From: Candidatus Vampirococcus lugosii
GTDB taxonomy: Bacteria > Patescibacteriota > Gracilibacteria > Absconditabacterales > Absconditicoccaceae
DNA: 8,241 bases
Reading direction: 5' to 3'
Assembly: GCF_018420025.1 (NCBI RefSeq)
Contig: NZ_JAEDAM010000042.1
Location: forward strand, 1-8,241
Shown: positions 1 to 8,241 of the stretch, piece after piece
Position numbering within the stretch: the stretch's first letter is position 1
Layout of the letters: the number at the start of each line of letters is the position of its first letter
Notes under the pieces: model-generated
Seen by the model: only the letters and a program-made list of their open reading frames with translations
What the model was told of the DNA's origin: nothing
Database searches by the model: none
Made by a program: the position numbers and the translations under genes

Positions 1-42
1 TGATATAAAAAAATATTATGATTTATTTAATAGATAAGTTTA

Positions 43-1005
43 ATGAAAAAGAAAATAGCTTTCCTCGCACCAGAAAATAAATGATGACCTTATTATATTT
101 ATAAAGATATGGTTGAAGTGTTAAAAGAAAAATACTGAAAAGAGCTTGATGTTTATTTTTTTAATTCAAAAAAAGATTGGTTAAAATTACATTTTGCAAG
201 ATATGATGTTTTATTTTCTGTAATTCCTTTTTTGTTTAAACCTTTGAGAATAAAAAAGTTTGTTTATAATTTACATGGAAATTTTGAGATAGAGAAAAAA
301 AATAAATCTTTATGAAATAAACTACTCTACCTAGCAAAAAGAAATTTAAAATTTGCAGATAATATAGCTCTTACAAGTTATTTCTTAGCTGATAAATTGA
401 TTTTTAGAAAACAATATGAAGATAAAATAATTATTATACCAAATTTTATAGATGAAAAAGAGTATAATTTTTGAGAGAAAAAATCTAAAGAAAATGTTTA
501 TAATATACTTACAATAACAAGTTTTAAATTTTATGATAAATGAAGATGAATACTCAAACTTTGAAATGTAATATCTAAACTTGGAGAAAAGGTAGATAAA
601 CAAATAAACTGGACTATAATTTGAAATGATGAAAATCTTGAAAATTTTCAAATAATTAAAAAAGAATTTGATAAGATAAGTTTTTGAAAAAACTTAAATA
701 TTAAGTGGCAGTGATGGTTAAGTAAGGAAAAAATAAAAAATGAATTGAAAAATAATGATTATTTCTTATATTGGAGTTATCTTGATACTTTTTGAATTGT
801 TATTCTTGAAGCTGTAGTAAGTAATATGAAAGTTTTAATAAATGATTATGAAGCTTTTGAATATATCTTTAATAAAGATATTATATGTGAAAATGAAAAT
901 GAAATGATAGAAAAAATAATAAATGATAATATAGAAAAAATAAATATTGATAATTATAAAAAAGAGCAAGTTTTAGATAAAATATTTAGTTTTATAATAA
1001 AATAA
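43..1005 (+). CDS. Glycosyltransferase, GT-B fold, family 4-like (Glycos_transf_1 type)
   Basis: Table-25 ORF of 320 aa, from ATG 43 (first ATG after in-frame TAG 31-33) to TAA 1003-1005. It has 12 in-frame TGA and no in-frame TAA or TAG. Translation begins MKKKIAFLAPENKGGPYYIYKDMVEVL. The N-terminal Gly loop 'ENKGGP' has both G encoded by TGA (82-87). The C-terminal donor-binding motif 'SYLDTFGIVILEAVVSNMKVLIND' (starting at 781) is typical of GT4 enzymes. A standard-code reading breaks this into fragments. Confidence 0.8.
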
Positions 1006-1008
1006 AAA

Positions 1009-2199
1009 ATGAAAGAAATATATATAAATGGTTCTTGAGTTCCTTACAGTTCATTACATCCTATTTTAAAAAATTTTTATAAAAAATTAGAAAAAAATAA
1101 TAATATATCTTATATAAATTTCTTAAAAGAAAATAAAAACACTAAACATATACCAAAAAATTTTGATAAAAAATGAATACAATCCTTTATTACAAAAATA
1201 AAGTGAAAAATTAATAGTTTACATCCTAGAATTTACATTATAAAAAACAAATATAATCAAGATATCATAACAGCAAACAATTTTTTATTAACCAAAAATA
1301 ATTACTATATTGTAACATCAGGGCTTATACAATTTAGCTGATTTAAATATAAATCATTATACAACAAAGTTTTTAAAATATTTTTCAAAAAACACTTATT
1401 ATCATCAAAATTAAAAAATATATTTGTATATTCACAAACAGCAATTGATGAATTTAAAAAATATTTTAAAGAAGAATTAAAATTAAATAAAGGTGAATAT
1501 AAAAAAGCAGTAAATAAATTAGTATTATATTACCCAGAATTAGTAAATATGAATAAAGTAGATGAAAATGATATAAAAAAAAGAATAAACAAATCTGAGA
1601 AAATTAAATTTTTATTTATATGAAGAAACTTTGTATGAAAATGATGAAAAGAGCTTATAGAAGCTTTAGAAATTATATCAAAAGATGAAACTATAGATAA
1701 AAATAGTTTTGAAATATCAATTATAACTGAATTCTCTGATAATTATAAAAAAGAATTAGAAAAATTAACAAATATAAATATAAATACTTACTGAATAGAC
1801 TTTACACAAGAAGAACTGGAAGAAAGATTTTATAAAACTCATCATGTTTTATTGCACTTAACAAGAGCCGATATATTTGGGATGGTATCACTTGAAAGTA
1901 AAAAAAGTTGACTTGCTGTAATTACAACAAAACAATATGTAAACTATCCTGAGTTGTTCAAAGAAAATGAAGCACTGTTTGTAGGTATAGATGAGAAATA
2001 TAATTGGAATGATTGATTGCCTAAAATAGACTATCTTGATGCATGGTATCAAAACACTAATTTTATTTATGAAAATCAGATATGTAGCAGTATAAAGGAG
2101 ATACTAACTAATAAATCAAAACTATTAGAATTATCATTAAATAATTTACAATCTTTAGAAAGATTTGAAAATAAGATAAATTTAGATAAATATTTATAA
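1009..2199 (+). CDS. Glycosyltransferase, GT-B fold, family 4/1-like
   Basis: Table-25 ORF of 396 aa, from ATG 1009 (3 nt after the upstream TAA) to TAA 2197-2199, with 11 in-frame TGA. Motifs are 'KFLFIGRNFVGKGGKELIEALEII' (TGA-encoded G at 1621, 1636, 1642 and 1645) and 'LTRADIFGMVSLESKKSGLAVITT' (1861-1920), which is the GT4 E-x7-E-like region. The track ORF 2017..2199 is only the part downstream of the last TGA. Confidence 0.8.
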
Positions 2200-2202
2200 A
2201 AA

Positions 2203-3615
2203 ATGAACTTCAAACAACTAAATAACAACTTCTTTAAGCTAGAAAATAAGCTTGATTTATTTAATAAACAAATAGATTGAGTTTATTTTTGGGAACTTGT
2301 AAGATTTTCTATAAACAGGGAAATTCTTATTAAAAAATGACTTATAACAATTCCTCATAAATGAGTTGATAATAAAATTATTTATATATTGAAAAATATA
2401 TTAAATTTAAGTTATAAAATTATTTTTAAAAATCCTTATTTTTCAGAAAAAGAAAGTATTTTTATAATATGACATCCAAGAAGACCATTGATTGATTGAT
2501 ATTATACAGATATTTATACTAAATACTTAAAAAAATGACTATCAAAAAATAATATAGATTATCAAGATTTTGAAAACTTTACTCAAGAATATATAAAAAG
2601 TAAAGATATAGAATCAAAAAATATATTGCAACTTGATTATTTTAGTATTTTTTCATTATTATTTAAAAATAGATTCAAATTTAATAAAAAAGATGAAAAA
2701 TATGTAAAAGATTTAGAATTAAAAATAAATAATGAGTTTTGAGTAAATATAGATATTTATAACAAAGTAAAAAATGAAATAGCTTCCTTTAATATTTTTT
2801 ATAAACATATATATAAATTTTTAAAAAGAAAAAGACCAAAAATTATATTTGAAGTAGTAAGTTATTGATTAATAGTAAGAGCCCTAAACAAAGCATCAAA
2901 AGAACTAAATATCCCAACTATAGAACTTCAACATGGAGTTATAGATAAATATCATCTTGGTTATTCTATGTGAGATCAAAAAAATATAAAATTAAATTAT
3001 TTTCCAGATTATATATTTACTTGGTGAGATTATTGGAATAGTGTTTGTAATTATCCAGAAAATACCAAACTTATATCTACTTGATTTCCATATTTTGAGC
3101 TAAATAAATCAAAGTATAATATAAATAAACAACAAGAAAAAAATATAATAGTTATATCTCAATGAGCTATATGAGAAGATTTATCAAAGCAAGTGTATGA
3201 AGTAGCAAAAGAACTTAAAGATTATACTTTTTATTATAAACTACATCCCTGAGAATTCCATAAAATAGACAATGAATTTTCTTTTTTAAAGGAACTTGAA
3301 AATATAAAGATAATTACTTGAGCAAAAACAGTTTATGATTTATTTGAAATATGTTCTATACAGATTTGAGCTTTTTCAACTGCTATTTATGAATGATTAT
3401 GATTTTGATTAAAAACTATTGTTTTTGATTTACCTTGAGTTGAATATCTTGATGATTTAGTTGAAAAAGATATTGTTAAAAAAATAGATAATCCTAGTGA
3501 TTGTATAGACATTATAAAAAATAAATATTTTTGAAAATCTAATGATTTTGAAAGTGAAAGTTTTTTTAAGTCAAAAGCTATTGATAATATGCTTGAAAAT
3601 ATAAAAAAGATATAA
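2203..3615 (+). CDS. Putative polysaccharide-biosynthesis transferase with an 'HP motif'. It resembles capsule-synthesis, sialyl- or Kdo-transferase GT-B proteins. Specificity is unknown.
   Basis: Table-25 ORF of 470 aa, from ATG 2203 to TAA 3613-3615, with 21 in-frame TGA and no TAA or TAG. Features are 'IPTIELQHGVI', 'NIIVISQGAIGEDLSK' (about 3145-3190), 'YYKLHPGEF' (KLHPGE at 3238-3255) and 'IQIGAFSTAIYEGLGFGLKTIVFD'. This layout is a Q/acidic segment, then K-x-H-P, then S-T-x-x-x-E-G. It recalls the nucleotide-sugar-binding half of bacterial sialyltransferases, KpsC/KpsS-type (PF05159) enzymes and TagF-like enzymes. Confidence that this is a real CDS is high. Confidence in the function is low. 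Confidence 0.7.
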
Positions 3616-3646
3616 AAAATTTTAAATATTAAATTAATTAATAATT

Positions 3647-4744
<1,098 letters not shown>

Positions 4745-4769
4745 TTATTTTACAATTTAATATAATGTT

Positions 4770-5942
4770 ATGACTATTAGACTTATAAAATCAAGTTTCT
4801 TTAATGAAAGAAAAACAAAAGAAAAACTTTGTAATTTTATAATGGACAGTGAAAAACTTAGTATATGAAATTATTGTGCTCAATTTGAAAAAAAATATGC
4901 TAATTGGCAAGAAAGAAAATATTGTATATCCTTTAATAGTTGAAGTTCTGCAAATTTAGCTTTAATACAAGCTATGATAAATATGTGAAAACTTAAAAAA
5001 TGAGATAAAGTTTGATTTTCTTCTTTATCTTGGGCTACAAATGTTATGCCAATTATTCAATTATGACTAGATGCAAGTCCAGTTGATGTAGAGTTAGATA
5101 CTTTAAATATTTCATTAAATACTTTTAAAAAATCAGTAGAGGAAAATAATATAAAATGTTTATTTATTACAAATTTATTATGATTTTGTGATAATATTGA
5201 TGAAATTGAAAAATATTGTAATGAAAATAATATATTATTATTGGAAGATAATTGTGAGTCAATGTGAACTGTTTACAAATGAAAAAAACTTTGAAATTAT
5301 TCTTTAGCTTCTACATTTTCAACTTTTGTATGACATCATATGTCAACTATAGAATGATGAATGGTGTGTACAGATAATAGAGATTTGTATATTATGCTTA
5401 ATATGGTAAGAGCACATGGATGGGATAGAAATTTATCACCCGATATACAATCAGAATTAAGAGAAAAATATAATATTGACAAAGCATTTTATTCAAAATA
5501 TACATTTTATACCTTAGGCTATAATTTAAGACCCAATGAAATTACTTGATTTTTAGGTTGTGAGCAAGTTCAATATTTAGATAAAATAGTAGAAAAAAGA
5601 GTTGATAATTTTAAAAAATTTGTAAATGCTGTAAACTCAAATGAAGATTTTTATAATCTAAAATACACACATATAGAAAAATTGTCAAATTTTGCGGTTC
5701 CAGTAATTTGTAAATCAAAAGAAATCTTAGAAAGATATATTGATATTTTTACAAAAAATGGAATAGAAATCAGACCAATTGTATGATGAGACCTTACACA
5801 ACAATTATTTTGGAAAAACATTTATGGTGAAAATAATAGTCATACAAATGCAAAACTTATACATGAACAATGATTTTATTTTGGAAATAGTCCTGAATAT
5901 ACTAAAGAAGAAATAAATTTAATTATTGAATCACTTAAATAA
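4770..5942 (+). CDS. colD: GDP-4-keto-6-deoxy-D-mannose 3-dehydratase (ColD-type). It belongs to the PLP/PMP-dependent DegT/DnrJ/EryC1 fold.
   Basis: Table-25 ORF of 390 aa, from ATG 4770 to TAA 5940-5942, with 17 in-frame TGA. Motifs shared with ColD as I recall it are 'SFNSGSSANLALI', 'LKKGDKV..SSLSWATNV', 'LLLEDNCESMG', 'RAHGWDRNL', 'LGYNLRPNEITG' and 'GIEIRPIVGG'. The segment that carries the Schiff-base Lys in aminotransferases reads 'STFVGHHMSTIEGGMV' (GHH..EGG at 5331-5360). It has His-His and no Lys, which is the signature of the ColD/E1 3-dehydratases. The size fits ColD (about 390 aa) rather than the larger Fe-S E1/DdhC. The track ORF 5361..5549 is an internal fragment. Confidence 0.87.
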
Positions 5943-5943
5943 A

Positions 5944-6867
5944 ATGAATAAAAACTCAAAAATCTATATAGCCTGACATACTTGACTTGTATGATGAGCT
6001 ATAGTAAAAAAATTAAAAGAACTTGGTTACAATAATCTTATTCTTAAAACAAGACAAGAATTAGATTTACTTAATCAAAAAGCTGTTTATGATTTTTACA
6101 AAAAAGAAAAACCTGAATTTGTTATAAATTCAGCTGCAAAAGTATGATGAATAAAAGTAAATATGAATTATCCGGCTAACTTTTTGTTTGAAAATCTTCA
6201 AATGCAAAACAATATTATCTGGTGAGCTCATTTATATGATGTAAAAAAACTACTATTTTTAGGTTCAAGTTGTATTTATCCAAGGTGATGTCCTCAACCT
6301 ATGAAAGAAGGATATTTTCTTGATTGAAAGGTTGAACCTACAAATGAATGATATGCACTTGCAAAAATAACTTGAATAAAACTTTGTGAAAAAATAAATG
6401 AGCAATTTTGAAAAAATTTCATTTCTTGTATGCCAACAAATATTTATTGACCTTGAGATAATTTTGATCCTGAAACTTCTCATGTAATACCATGACTTAT
6501 AAGAAGAATACATGAAGCAAAAGAAAATAATATAAATGAAGTTATAGTTTGGGGAACATGAAAAAGCAGAAGAGAGTTTTTATATGTAGATGACTTAGCA
6601 GAAGCTTGTATTTGGATGTTGGAAAACTATAATAAGAAAGAGTTTTTAAATATTTGAACATGAGATGATATAAGTATAAAAGAACTTGCTTATGTTATAA
6701 AAAATTTAGTTTGATATAACTGAAATTTAAAATTTGATGCTACAAAACCTGACTGAATGCCTAAGAAACTTCTTGATGTAAGTAAAATAAATAATCTATG
6801 ATGGAAATATAAAACTAATTTTATTAATTGATTAGAAAAGACCTATAAATGATTTAAAAAATTATAA
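5944..6867 (+). CDS. fcl: GDP-L-fucose synthase family epimerase/reductase (Fcl/WcaG). In this context it is probably a GDP-L-colitose synthase (ColC).
   Basis: Table-25 ORF of 307 aa, from ATG 5944 (1 nt after the colD stop) to TAA 6865-6867, with 24 in-frame TGA. Translation begins MNKNSKIYIAGHTGLVGGAIVKKLKELGY. It continues through SAAKVGGI..N..YPA.F, LLFLGSSCIYPR, EPTNEGYALAKITGIKLCE, MPTNIYGPGDNF, TSHVIPGLIRRIHEA, VWGTGKSRREFLYVDDLAEA, NIGTGDDISIKELA, GYNG...FD..KPDGMPKKLLDVSK and LGW. This is colinear with E. coli Fcl from memory, including the catalytic Cys (SSCIYP), Tyr/Lys (YALAK) and His (SHVIP). Confidence 0.92.
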
Positions 6868-6909
6868 AATGTTATTTCTATATTTATATATACTAAAACT
6901 AAATCTAAT

Positions 6910-8079
6910 ATGAGTAAAAAATTAAAATTATTTTATATCGTTGCATTTGAAGAGCAAACATACAATTTTGAAAATAAAATTGAAAATATTTTAAATTTAA
7001 TGCAAAATGGTAAAAAGCAACATATTACAACATTAGAAAATCACTTTTTAATGTTGAGTAAACATTTTAATATATATAATTTTTATAAATATAAAGATAA
7101 TATTGAGAAGGAAAACTCTATTATATATCATCTTCCAAACTGAAGAGATGATGAAAAATGAGTAGAAGAAGAACTTTTAAAATATAAGGGAAAAGTGCCA
7201 ATAGTAATGAGAAGTTATGATGCTCATTCTCCTAACAAAGCAAGTATTGATTATATGGAAAAATATCATGATTTAATTATTACATATTTAAAAAAACATG
7301 TAAATAATAATAATATATTTTTTGGACATATGTGTTATGATAATCATATAATGCACACATATCAACAAAACAAAAGTAAAAAACTTGCATGTATGATTTT
7401 AAGAAATAGAGAAGAAAGTTCTTATAATAAAGATTATAGTTTGTTTATAGAAAAATGAATAGATCTATTAAAAAATTATAAGGAAAGAAAAAAAATAACC
7501 AAATATACTGATATACATATTTACTGAACTTGATGGTCTATCAAAACAAAAAATTATTACTGACCAATAAATCCATTTGATAAAAAATATCATGTATTAT
7601 GAAATTATAAATTTAATTTTGTATTAGAAAATGTTATAACTAAAACACATATATCTGAAAAAACATTAGACTCATTTCTTTCTTTTTCTGTTCCTGTTTA
7701 TTTATGAGCACCAGATATAAATAAACATATACCCAAAGAAACTTTTATAAATATAAATGATTTTCAGGATTATGATGATTTGTTAAATTTTTTAAAAAAT
7801 ATGACTATAGAAGAATACAATAAATATATAAATTCTATTGAAAAAAATCGTAATATAATATTTAAACAATTTTCAACAGAAGAAAATTTTTCTAAGATCG
7901 TTTATAATTGGTATAATAATAAATATAAAACAAATTTTTGATTATCCAATGATGAATATAAAGAAATAGAACAATCTATATGAAATTTAAAATTTAAAAG
8001 TAGTTCTGTAATTTTATCTAATCTATATAGATATTTATATTTATTTAAATTATATTTATTAGAATATATAAGAAAATAA
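6910..8079 (+). CDS. GT10-family (alpha-1,3/4-fucosyltransferase-like) glycosyltransferase. It is a candidate fucosyl- or colitosyltransferase.
   Basis: Table-25 ORF of 389 aa, from ATG 6910 to TAA 8077-8079, with 10 in-frame TGA. It joins track ORFs 6910..7143 and 7195..7458, which share a frame, and extends a further 620 nt. The diagnostic GT10 block is 'YKFNFVLENVITKTHISEKTLDSFLSFSVPVYLGAPDINKHIPKETFININDFQDYDDLLNFLKNM' (7606 to about 7800). This matches the H. pylori FucT region 'KFNLCFEN....YVTEKIIDAYFSHTIPIYWGSPSVAKDFNPKSFVNVHDFNNFDEAIDYIKYL' as I recall it. The C-terminus is aromatic and hydrophobic and basic: 'VILSNLYRYLYLFKLYLLEYIRK'. Confidence 0.82.
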
Positions 8080-8100
8080 ACTTTAAATTTTATTAAAAAA

Positions 8101-8133
8101 GATACAAAATTAATTTTGCATCTTTTTTCTTTT
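8101..8133. terminator. Weak AT-rich hairpin with a T-tract. It is a possible rho-independent, possibly bidirectional terminator between convergent genes.
   Basis: GATACAAAA (8101-8109), loop TTAA, then TTTTGCATC (8114-8122) form a 9-bp stem with one A/C mismatch. The stem is followed by TTTTTTCTTTT (8123-8133) and preceded by AAAAAA (8095-8100). It lies 22 nt after the operon's last stop codon. The stem has only two G:C pairs, so predicted stability is low. Confidence 0.4.
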
Positions 8134-8241
8134 GAAAATATTTTTAATTACTTTTATCTCTTCTTTATCAAAAAAGTTCATAAAATATAAGCTTACTATT
8201 GATAGTAATGCAAGCAAAGTTTTATATAATATAATATTAAC
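8110..8241 (-). CDS. 3' end of a convergent gene (partial, runs off the window). The C-terminal tail is hydrophobic and then basic. Function is unknown.
   Basis: The minus strand reads ...VNIILYKTLLALLSIVSLYFMNFFDKEEIKVIKNIFKRKKMQN, then TAA (complement of 8110-8112). That is 43 sense codons open to the window edge, in DNA where TAA and TAG are frequent by chance. The hydrophobic stretch suggests a membrane segment. The fragment is short and has no recognisable motif. Confidence 0.35.
   Translation of the reverse strand, partial: VNIILYKTLLALLSIVSLYFMNFFDKEEIKVIKNIFKRKKMQN

Follow-up and report, generated by a model that had tools for sequence, protein, structure and literature searches.

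The window analyzed here, an 8,241-nt stretch of DNA assigned to Candidatus Vampirococcus lugosii, raises the question of which genetic code it is written in and, in particular, which amino acid its TGA codons specify. Under translation table 11, the longest start-to-stop open reading frame (ORF) in the whole window is 88 aa (385–651, − strand), and the maximal stop-to-stop run is 106 codons. When TGA is treated as a sense codon, seven + strand ORFs of 320, 396, 470, 365, 390, 307, and 389 aa, counted from the first ATG, lie back to back and cover 96% of the window. The 2637 codons of these seven genes include 111 in-frame TGAs and no TAA or TAG, and their two alternative frames contain 458 TAA or TAG codons. 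The longest run free of TAA and TAG is 471 codons, compared with a mean of 103 and a maximum of 212 in 200 mononucleotide shuffles. All seven genes terminate at TAA, and UAG is absent as a stop from this window. This recount agrees with the initial annotation, which had reported no standard-code ORF above 88 aa, seven adjacent ORFs of 307–470 aa once TGA is sense, and TGAs at 3677–3679 and 3719–3721 (Gmd) and at 5974, 5983, 5992, and 5995 (Fcl). Tables 4 and 25 yield an identical ORF map, and they assign different residues to TGA. The window is almost certainly part of the genome of Ca. V. lugosii (Absconditibacteriota/SR1, CPR) and is read with table 25, in which UGA is Gly, UGG is Trp, and only UAA and UAG are stops.

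The residue specified by TGA

Column tests were carried out with every window TGA masked as X and with standard-code orthologs that lack in-frame TGA (75 for Gmd, 60 for Fcl, and five for the ColD-like protein). Tabulating the residue matched by each TGA column, a check that the initial annotation had proposed, gave mostly Gly and never a Trp majority: Gly is the majority residue in 43 of 57 columns (14/16 in Gmd, 17/24 in Fcl, and 12/17 in the ColD-like protein), and Trp in none. The pooled Gly share at these columns is 85, 71, and 70%, respectively, and the columns of the window's own GGN codons are 67–100% Gly in the same orthologs. TGA is statistically equivalent to a GGN codon in the window. 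The log10-likelihood gap between Gly and the next amino acid is 27.7 for Gmd, 31.4 for Fcl, and 11.0 for the ColD-like protein, with Trp favored nowhere. Compared with the E. coli crystal-structure sequences, the TGA positions match Gly in 43 of 57 cases and Trp in one. Pfam scores with TGA as X, Gly, or Trp are 473/511/454, 147/189/132, and 167/206/154 bits, a gain of 38–42 bits per protein (about 40) for Gly and a loss of 13–19 bits for Trp. The remaining 14 of the 57 columns are variable, with an ortholog majority of Ser, Ala, Pro, Leu, Asn, Ile, Arg, or Asp. The claim that the TGAs of Gmd and Fcl sit on invariant glycines needs correcting for these variable columns; one of them is that of the fourth TGA of the Fcl motif IAG*HTG*LVG*G*AI (asterisk, TGA), where 52 of 60 orthologs have Ser.

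TGG occupies separate positions. It falls on Trp columns that are invariant among the 75 Gmd orthologs (residues 169, 230, and 326, 75/75 each) and on Trp columns of Fcl at residues 203 (60/60) and 287 (58/60). The motifs put forward earlier as conserved Trp encoded by TGG fare accordingly: RDW and KLGW stand (Trp in 75/75), and RAHGW does so in part, with Trp in two of five orthologs and in E. coli ColD.

Recoded relatives show the same exchange at the codon level. The window Gmd TGAs lie opposite TGA or GGN at 16/16, 15/16, and 14/15 positions in three Gracilibacteria or related loci (L001, L004, and L013, respectively), and the TGAs of the ColD-like and Fcl genes exchange similarly. A window TGA is matched by TGG in one of about 130 such comparisons. 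UGA and GGN are thus exchanged as synonymous codons among these relatives. TGA is also the main Gly codon of the window (111/144, 77%). It is the sole Gly codon in which just one base is G or C, and strong A+T pressure (21.8% GC, GC3 11%) would explain why it is favored. In the relatives' Gmd genes, TGA makes up seven of 31 Gly codons at 40% GC and 22 of 28 at 28% GC. Column tallies, Pfam scores, the codons of relatives, and the published genome all support the reading of UGA as Gly.

Rival codes and the source of the contig

Were UGA read as Trp, the table 4 assignment used by Mycoplasma and by several endosymbionts of insects, the same ORFs would be obtained; Trp does appear at TGA in several public translations of these genes (Logan copies), and E. 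coli Fcl has Trp at the position of one TGA column (Fcl residue 303). That column is variable, however (Asp 20, Trp 11, Glu 9 of 60), and the column tallies refute this code, with a Trp majority in none of the 57 columns and Trp absent from all 16 Gmd columns among the 75 orthologs. The Pfam penalty for Trp, the TGA/GGN swaps in relatives, and the separate occupation of invariant Trp columns by TGG point the same way, and we consider table 4 highly improbable. Under the standard code, the genes would be decayed or specially recoded, and their TGAs would be genuine stops, read-through sites, or codons for selenocysteine. This explanation has a single point in its favor, that most bacteria stop at TGA, and its probability is next to nil. 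It is already refuted, as is pseudogenization: all 111 TGAs lie in a single frame of seven enzymes that are full length and highly conserved, whereas pseudogenes would accumulate TAA, TAG, and frameshifts too. The TGAs are on Gly columns rather than on Cys or selenocysteine columns, an Rfam scan of the window at E ≤ 1 found no RNA family, and homologs in relatives retain the same TGAs.

A third alternative accepts UGA as Gly but takes the contig from another table 25 organism, or from a mobile element, co-binned with Vampirococcus. The genome was binned by ESOM (tetranucleotide) from whole-genome-amplified consortia as a mini-metagenome, so that contig assignment rests on binning; glycan clusters are frequently transferred horizontally; and, across reference genomes, identity to the nearest Gmd relatives reaches only about 70–72%. 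Against this, the same genes are found on a 6666-bp contig of an independent Logan assembly, the window has no phage-like or plasmid-like gene, and the authors of the genome report nothing that points to contamination or to more than one strain (PMC8080830). We judge co-binning to be improbable, and the conclusion on the genetic code would not change even if it had occurred.

All seven table 25 translations are verbatim GenBank proteins of Ca. V. lugosii (taxid 2789015, phylum Candidatus Absconditibacteriota), encoded on a contig of 8241 bp that the window spans in full, which confirms the earlier placement of the sequence in the SR1/Absconditabacteria–Gracilibacteria lineages of the CPR. The genome paper states that UGA is Gly and used Prodigal with table 25 (PMC8080830). 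Codetta inferred the same assignment in six of six Absconditabacteria, and two Gracilibacteria species without a UGA inference lack tRNA-Gly(UCA) and encode RF2 (PMC8629427). For a BD1-5 bacterium, UGA as Gly is backed by proteomics (PMC4032931). The code is attributed to Rinke et al. 2013 where it is cited in PMC8080830 and PMC8629427. UGA as Gly is thus already known, since 2013 for Absconditabacteria and since 2021 for the Ca. V. lugosii genome.

A tRNA-Gly with anticodon UCA is an expected hallmark of the clade (PMC8629427). From what is established for the clade, such a dedicated tRNA would read UGA here, and RF2 would have been lost, leaving RF1 alone to terminate at UAA and UAG. No tRNA gene was found in the window or in the loci of the three recoded relatives, the window holds no release-factor gene, and the supplements of PMC8080830 make no mention of release factor, tRNA-Gly, GDP-mannose, fucose, or colitose. 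CGA and CGG are possibly read as Trp in Absconditabacteria (PMC8629427), and table 25 may for this reason be an incomplete description of the organism's code. As a factor in the window this reassignment was set aside; CGA and CGG codons number zero, and the seven translations are untouched by it.

The main value of these observations is in quality control: a nonstandard code and the correct phylum can be recovered from 8 kb of raw sequence. In gene calling, table 11 would shatter the operon, and table 4 would mistranslate it. The caution about mis-annotation of all the genes applies under table 11 but not to the public record, which is already on table 25. Among the 120 closest Gmd entries in public metagenome-derived proteins, 98 carry at least one table 4–style Trp for Gly. 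Because such translations are common in these protein sets, they can distort the alignments, structure predictions, and family profiles of the clade.

Gene content and the colitose question

The seven co-directional genes, all on the + strand, would form one surface-glycan cluster. The first (43–1005; 320 aa, 12 TGA, MBS8122111.1) encodes a GT4/GT1-type glycosyltransferase with Pfam Glyco_transf_4 and Glycos_transf_1 matches, and the second (1009–2199; 396 aa, 11 TGA, MBS8122112.1) a GT1-family glycosyltransferase (Glycos_transf_1, E = 8.7e-10). The third (2203–3615; 470 aa, 21 TGA, MBS8122113.1) is of uncertain function, being named "hypothetical protein" by NCBI and "Sialyltransferase" in UniRef. 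A Pfam scan gave no family and a sequence search no solved relative; it matches the NCBIfam BFO_1060 family glycosyltransferase domain with E = 1.7e-10, well under the cut-off, and is probably a glycosyltransferase. The last gene (6910–8079; 389 aa, 10 TGA, MBS8122117.1) encodes a GT10-family, fucosyltransferase-like enzyme (Glyco_transf_10, E = 4.8e-11). It is followed by a noncoding contig end of 162 nt (8080–8241) with no ORF, tRNA, Rfam match, or terminator-like site. Promoter-like sites number 103 in the window, compared with 80 expected, in a scan that is uninformative in A+T-rich DNA; the same limit applies to two overlapping terminator-like hairpins within gmd.

The fourth gene (3647–4744; 365 aa, 16 TGA, 11 GGN, six TGG) encodes GDP-mannose 4,6-dehydratase (Gmd), with a TIGR01472 score of 579 bits (cut-off 415) and a match to PDB 1db3 at E = 2.7e-150. 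With TGA as Gly it is identical to an NCBI protein, and it shares 66% identity with E. coli Gmd when TGA positions are excluded. The fifth (4770–5942; 390 aa, 17 TGA, MBS8122115.1) is publicly annotated as a DegT family aminotransferase. Among solved structures it is closest to ColD/WbdK (2gms, E = 1.7e-55), compared with about 1e-14 for true aminotransferases. A GHH motif lies opposite SHH of ColD, and its first His corresponds to ColD His188, which is altered in the mutant entries 3b8x, 2r0t, and 3gr9. By sequence, the protein fits a ColD-like, PMP-dependent GDP-4-keto-6-deoxymannose 3-dehydratase, with a predicted DegT fold, a His at the site of the Schiff-base Lys, and a closer resemblance to ColD than to aminotransferases. 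The sixth (5944–6867; 307 aa, 24 TGA, MBS8122116.1) belongs to the GDP-L-fucose synthase family of epimerase/reductases (Fcl, or ColC-like). It matches PDB 1bsv at E = 1.9e-89 and scores 443 bits for NCBIfam Fcl, under the cut-off of 500. In a neighbor-joining tree without support values or a ColC reference, it groups with Fcl-like proteins of ColD-bearing loci.

Gmd would generate GDP-4-keto-6-deoxymannose, which the Fcl-family enzyme, alone or together with the ColD-like 3-dehydratase, would convert to GDP-L-fucose and/or GDP-L-colitose, and the four putative glycosyltransferases, one of them GT10, would consume the resulting GDP-sugar. Because the ColD-like gene sits between gmd and fcl, the "Fcl" may in fact function in colitose synthesis, as a colitose synthase, and the cluster may yield GDP-colitose besides, or in place of, GDP-fucose. 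Colitose is a 3,6-dideoxyhexose known mainly from Gram-negative O-antigens. The gmd/colD-like/fcl-like triad recurs in L004 and L013, two further genomes that read UGA as Gly, and this conservation leads us to propose, tentatively and with less than even confidence, that Absconditabacteria and Gracilibacteria make GDP-L-colitose and display it on the glycans of the epibiont surface, where it may help them to attach to or mimic their Gram-negative hosts. Among the top literature matches, no mention was found of colitose linked with either lineage.

Comparison with known systems

In its code, the window does not differ in kind from the table 25 system: UGA as Gly, UGG as Trp, UAA and UAG as stops, low GC, and membership in the Absconditibacteriota are shared, although the extent is notable, with TGA as 77% of Gly codons. 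Users of table 4 (Mycoplasmatales, Entomoplasmatales, Hodgkinia, Nasuia, Zinderia, and Stammera) resemble it in the capture of UGA, an A+T-rich reduced genome, a presumed loss of RF2, and the identical ORF map, but they insert Trp where Gly is inserted here. For the sugar pathway, the comparison system is GDP-L-colitose synthesis for Gram-negative O-antigens (Gmd, ColD/WbdK, and ColC; structures 2gms and 3gr9). As there, gmd, a ColD-like dehydratase with the catalytic His, and an Fcl/ColC-family epimerase/reductase adjoin one another. The window's dehydratase, however, is only about 32% identical to E. coli ColD, and its epimerase/reductase also resembles a normal Fcl. Ca. V. lugosii is an epibiont of the CPR whose wall is described as of the Gram-positive type (PMC8080830) and, unlike the organisms of the comparison system, is not an LPS producer.

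Reading frames and gene products

With standard stops (table 11), ORFs that begin at a start codon reach at most 88 aa in the 8241-bp window (21.8% G+C), as the initial annotation had stated, and stretches between stops reach at most 106 codons. When TGA is read as a sense codon, seven long ORFs of 307–470 aa appear, all on the + strand. Reading TAG as sense adds no ORFs in the window, and TAA as a sense codon yields just a scatter of ORFs, most of them on the − strand. Counted from the first ATG, the seven genes (g1–g7) fill 96% of the window, with intergenic gaps of 1 to 42 nt, and each terminates at TAA. Their in-frame codons include 111 TGA but 0 TAA and 0 TAG, compared with 458 TAA/TAG in the two off-frames. 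The longest TAA/TAG-free run is 471 codons; 200 shuffles gave a mean of 103 and a maximum of 212. The pattern described initially is real, falls at the coordinates given for it, and lies far beyond chance.

Gene products were assigned with TGA masked as X, so that its meaning was not prejudged. On the basis of Pfam, g1 (43–1005, +, 320 aa) is a GT4/GT1 glycosyltransferase and g2 (1009–2199, +, 396 aa) is a GT1 glycosyltransferase. The function of g3 (2203–3615, +, 470 aa) is uncertain, with no Pfam family or solved relative found by sequence. It is probably a glycosyltransferase, as residues 316–463 weakly match the NCBIfam BFO_1060 family glycosyltransferase domain (E = 1.7e-10). The protein is named "hypothetical" at NCBI and "Sialyltransferase" at UniRef, and its QHG and HPGE motifs are reminiscent of GT-B sialyl- or capsule-transferases. 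GDP-mannose 4,6-dehydratase (Gmd) is encoded by g4 (3647–4744, +, 365 aa), with matches to PF16363 (E = 8e-142), TIGR01472 (579 bits, exceeding the cut-off), and PDB 1db3 (E = 2.7e-150). It is followed by a DegT-fold, ColD-like enzyme (g5, 4770–5942, +, 390 aa), a member of the GDP-fucose synthase (Fcl) family (g6, 5944–6867, +, 307 aa; PDB 1bsv, E = 1.9e-89), and a GT10 fucosyltransferase-like protein (g7, 6910–8079, +, 389 aa; Pfam E = 4.8e-11).

The spacers before g2–g7 are purely A/T-rich, and three genes begin 1 to 3 nt past the previous TAA. No purine-rich Shine-Dalgarno-like motif (GGAG, GAGG, or AGGA) is visible in the 20 nt 5' of the g2–g7 starts (1009, 2203, 3647, 4770, 5944, and 6910). 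This spacer pattern suggests translational coupling or Shine-Dalgarno-independent initiation. Within gmd (3902–3927, +), two terminator-like hairpins overlap and are followed by a T-run. These are the only two such sites found in the window, against 0.6 expected, and they are probably due to chance.

The residue encoded by UGA

UGA is a glycine sense codon in these genes, UGG encodes tryptophan, and the genes end at UAA. In the solved Escherichia coli references, Gly stands opposite TGA at 14/16 positions in Gmd, 17/24 in Fcl, and 12/17 in ColD (43/57 in total), whereas Trp does so at only one of the 57. A reference-genome scan yielded 80 gmd loci, of which the 75 without in-frame TGA, all from standard-code phyla, served as orthologs; Fcl and ColD-like orthologs were taken from the flanks of the gmd loci. 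Gly accounts for at least 81% of ortholog residues in 14 of the 16 Gmd TGA columns and is invariant in six, and Trp does not occur at any of these columns in the 75 orthologs. The per-column likelihood for Gmd favors Gly over the next amino acid by 27.7 log10 units. Gly is likewise the majority residue in 17/24 TGA columns of Fcl (60 standard-code orthologs; lead of 31 log10 units) and in 12/17 of the ColD-like protein (5 orthologs; 11 log10 units). The GGN codons of the window resemble the TGA columns, with 67–100% Gly pooled over orthologs. The initial annotation had placed the Gmd and Fcl TGAs on invariant glycines; this holds as a Gly majority in most columns but is overstated, as not every TGA falls on Gly. 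The two exceptions in Gmd, residues 138 and 147 (L/K and P in orthologs), lie on either side of four inserted residues in a variable loop (4058–4087; E. coli counterpart GLVQ----EIP).

Could UGA instead encode Trp, as in table 4? Fcl residue 303, the sole position where an E. coli Trp stands opposite TGA, varies among the 60 orthologs (D 20, W 11, E 9), and TGG codons of the window fall on invariant Trp columns. Pfam scores with TGA read as X, Gly, and Trp are 473, 511, and 454 bits for Gmd, 147, 189, and 132 for the ColD-like protein, and 167, 206, and 154 for Fcl. Table 4 is excluded by these observations. Codon exchange was compared with three relatives that also carry in-frame TGA, two Gracilibacteria loci (L001 and L013) and one from an uncultured bacterium of 28% GC (L004). 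The Gmd TGAs of the window stand opposite TGA or GGN at 16/16 (L001), 15/16 (L004), and 14/15 (L013) positions, with a similar pattern for ColD-like and Fcl; thus, TGA and GGN are swapped as synonyms. Selenocysteine insertion, read-through, and pseudogenes are excluded as well.

As a glycine codon, TGA dominates: g1–g7 use 111 TGA and 33 GGN (16 GGA, 13 GGT, 3 GGG, and 1 GGC), so that TGA makes up 77% of the codons for Gly and 4.2% of the codon total. Among the Gmd genes of relatives, its share of Gly codons is 7/31 at 40% GC and 22/28 at 28% GC, a rise with falling GC that is as expected from A+T pressure. Arginine is encoded by AGA (54), AGG (4), and CGT (2), with 0 CGC. A second reassignment, CGA/CGG to Trp, has been predicted in Absconditabacteria (Shulgina & Eddy 2021, PMC8629427), but CGA and CGG are absent from all window genes, and the seven proteins are therefore unaffected by it.

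A ColD-like enzyme and possible GDP-colitose synthesis

The public annotation of g5 is "DegT/DnrJ/EryC1/StrS family aminotransferase." Its match to ColD, the GDP-4-keto-6-deoxymannose 3-dehydratase (2gms), reaches E = 1.7e-55, far closer than that to true aminotransferases (about 1e-14), and one His residue of the protein aligns with the catalytic His188 of ColD, which replaces the Schiff-base Lys. A gmd/colD-like/fcl-like triad recurs in two other UGA=Gly genomes (L004, 6001–9657; L013, 3–5303). Given the ColD-like g5 and this recurrence, the g4–g5–g6 cluster may produce GDP-colitose, either alongside GDP-fucose or in its place, and g6 may act as ColC, the GDP-colitose synthase. The g6 product scores below the NCBI Fcl cut-off and groups weakly with Fcl-like proteins from ColD-bearing loci.

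Source genome and the code of its clade

The masked Gmd has its best database match in the GDP-mannose 4,6-dehydratase of Candidatus Vampirococcus lugosii at NCBI; the two proteins are identical, and the NCBI entry has Gly for each of the 16 TGA codons. The six other table-25 translations, chosen starts included, are verbatim GenBank/RefSeq proteins of this organism (MBS8122111-13 and MBS8122115-17), encoded with Gmd on one 8241-bp contig. NCBI taxonomy places this organism, whose 1.31-Mb assembly was binned from whole-genome-amplified consortia, within Candidatus Absconditibacteriota, in agreement with the SR1/Absconditabacteria–Gracilibacteria origin proposed initially. The warning that every gene would be mis-annotated applies to table 11, which gives no long ORF, but not to the public record, which follows table 25. 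Translations from Logan assemblies of this organism follow table 4, with each TGA rendered as Trp (proteins P0002, P0123, P0125, and P0127; 6666-bp contig). Among the 120 nearest public Gmd sequences, 98 show Trp in one or more conserved Gly columns; derived protein databases thus widely mistranslate Gly as Trp in this clade.

From the clade literature, UGA would be decoded by tRNA-Gly(UCA), and RF1 alone would terminate translation because RF2 is predicted to be absent; the 8241-bp window contains no tRNA genes. Since UGA=Gly is a textbook alternative code, already published for this same genome, whose genes were called by Prodigal with table 25 (PMC8080830), its use here is nothing new. Codetta inferred it in 6/6 Absconditabacteria and 13/15 Gracilibacteria species; the two Gracilibacteria species without a UGA inference lack tRNA-Gly(UCA) and encode RF2 (PMC8629427). 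Gly at UGA has also been confirmed by proteomics in a BD1-5 bacterium (PMC4032931).
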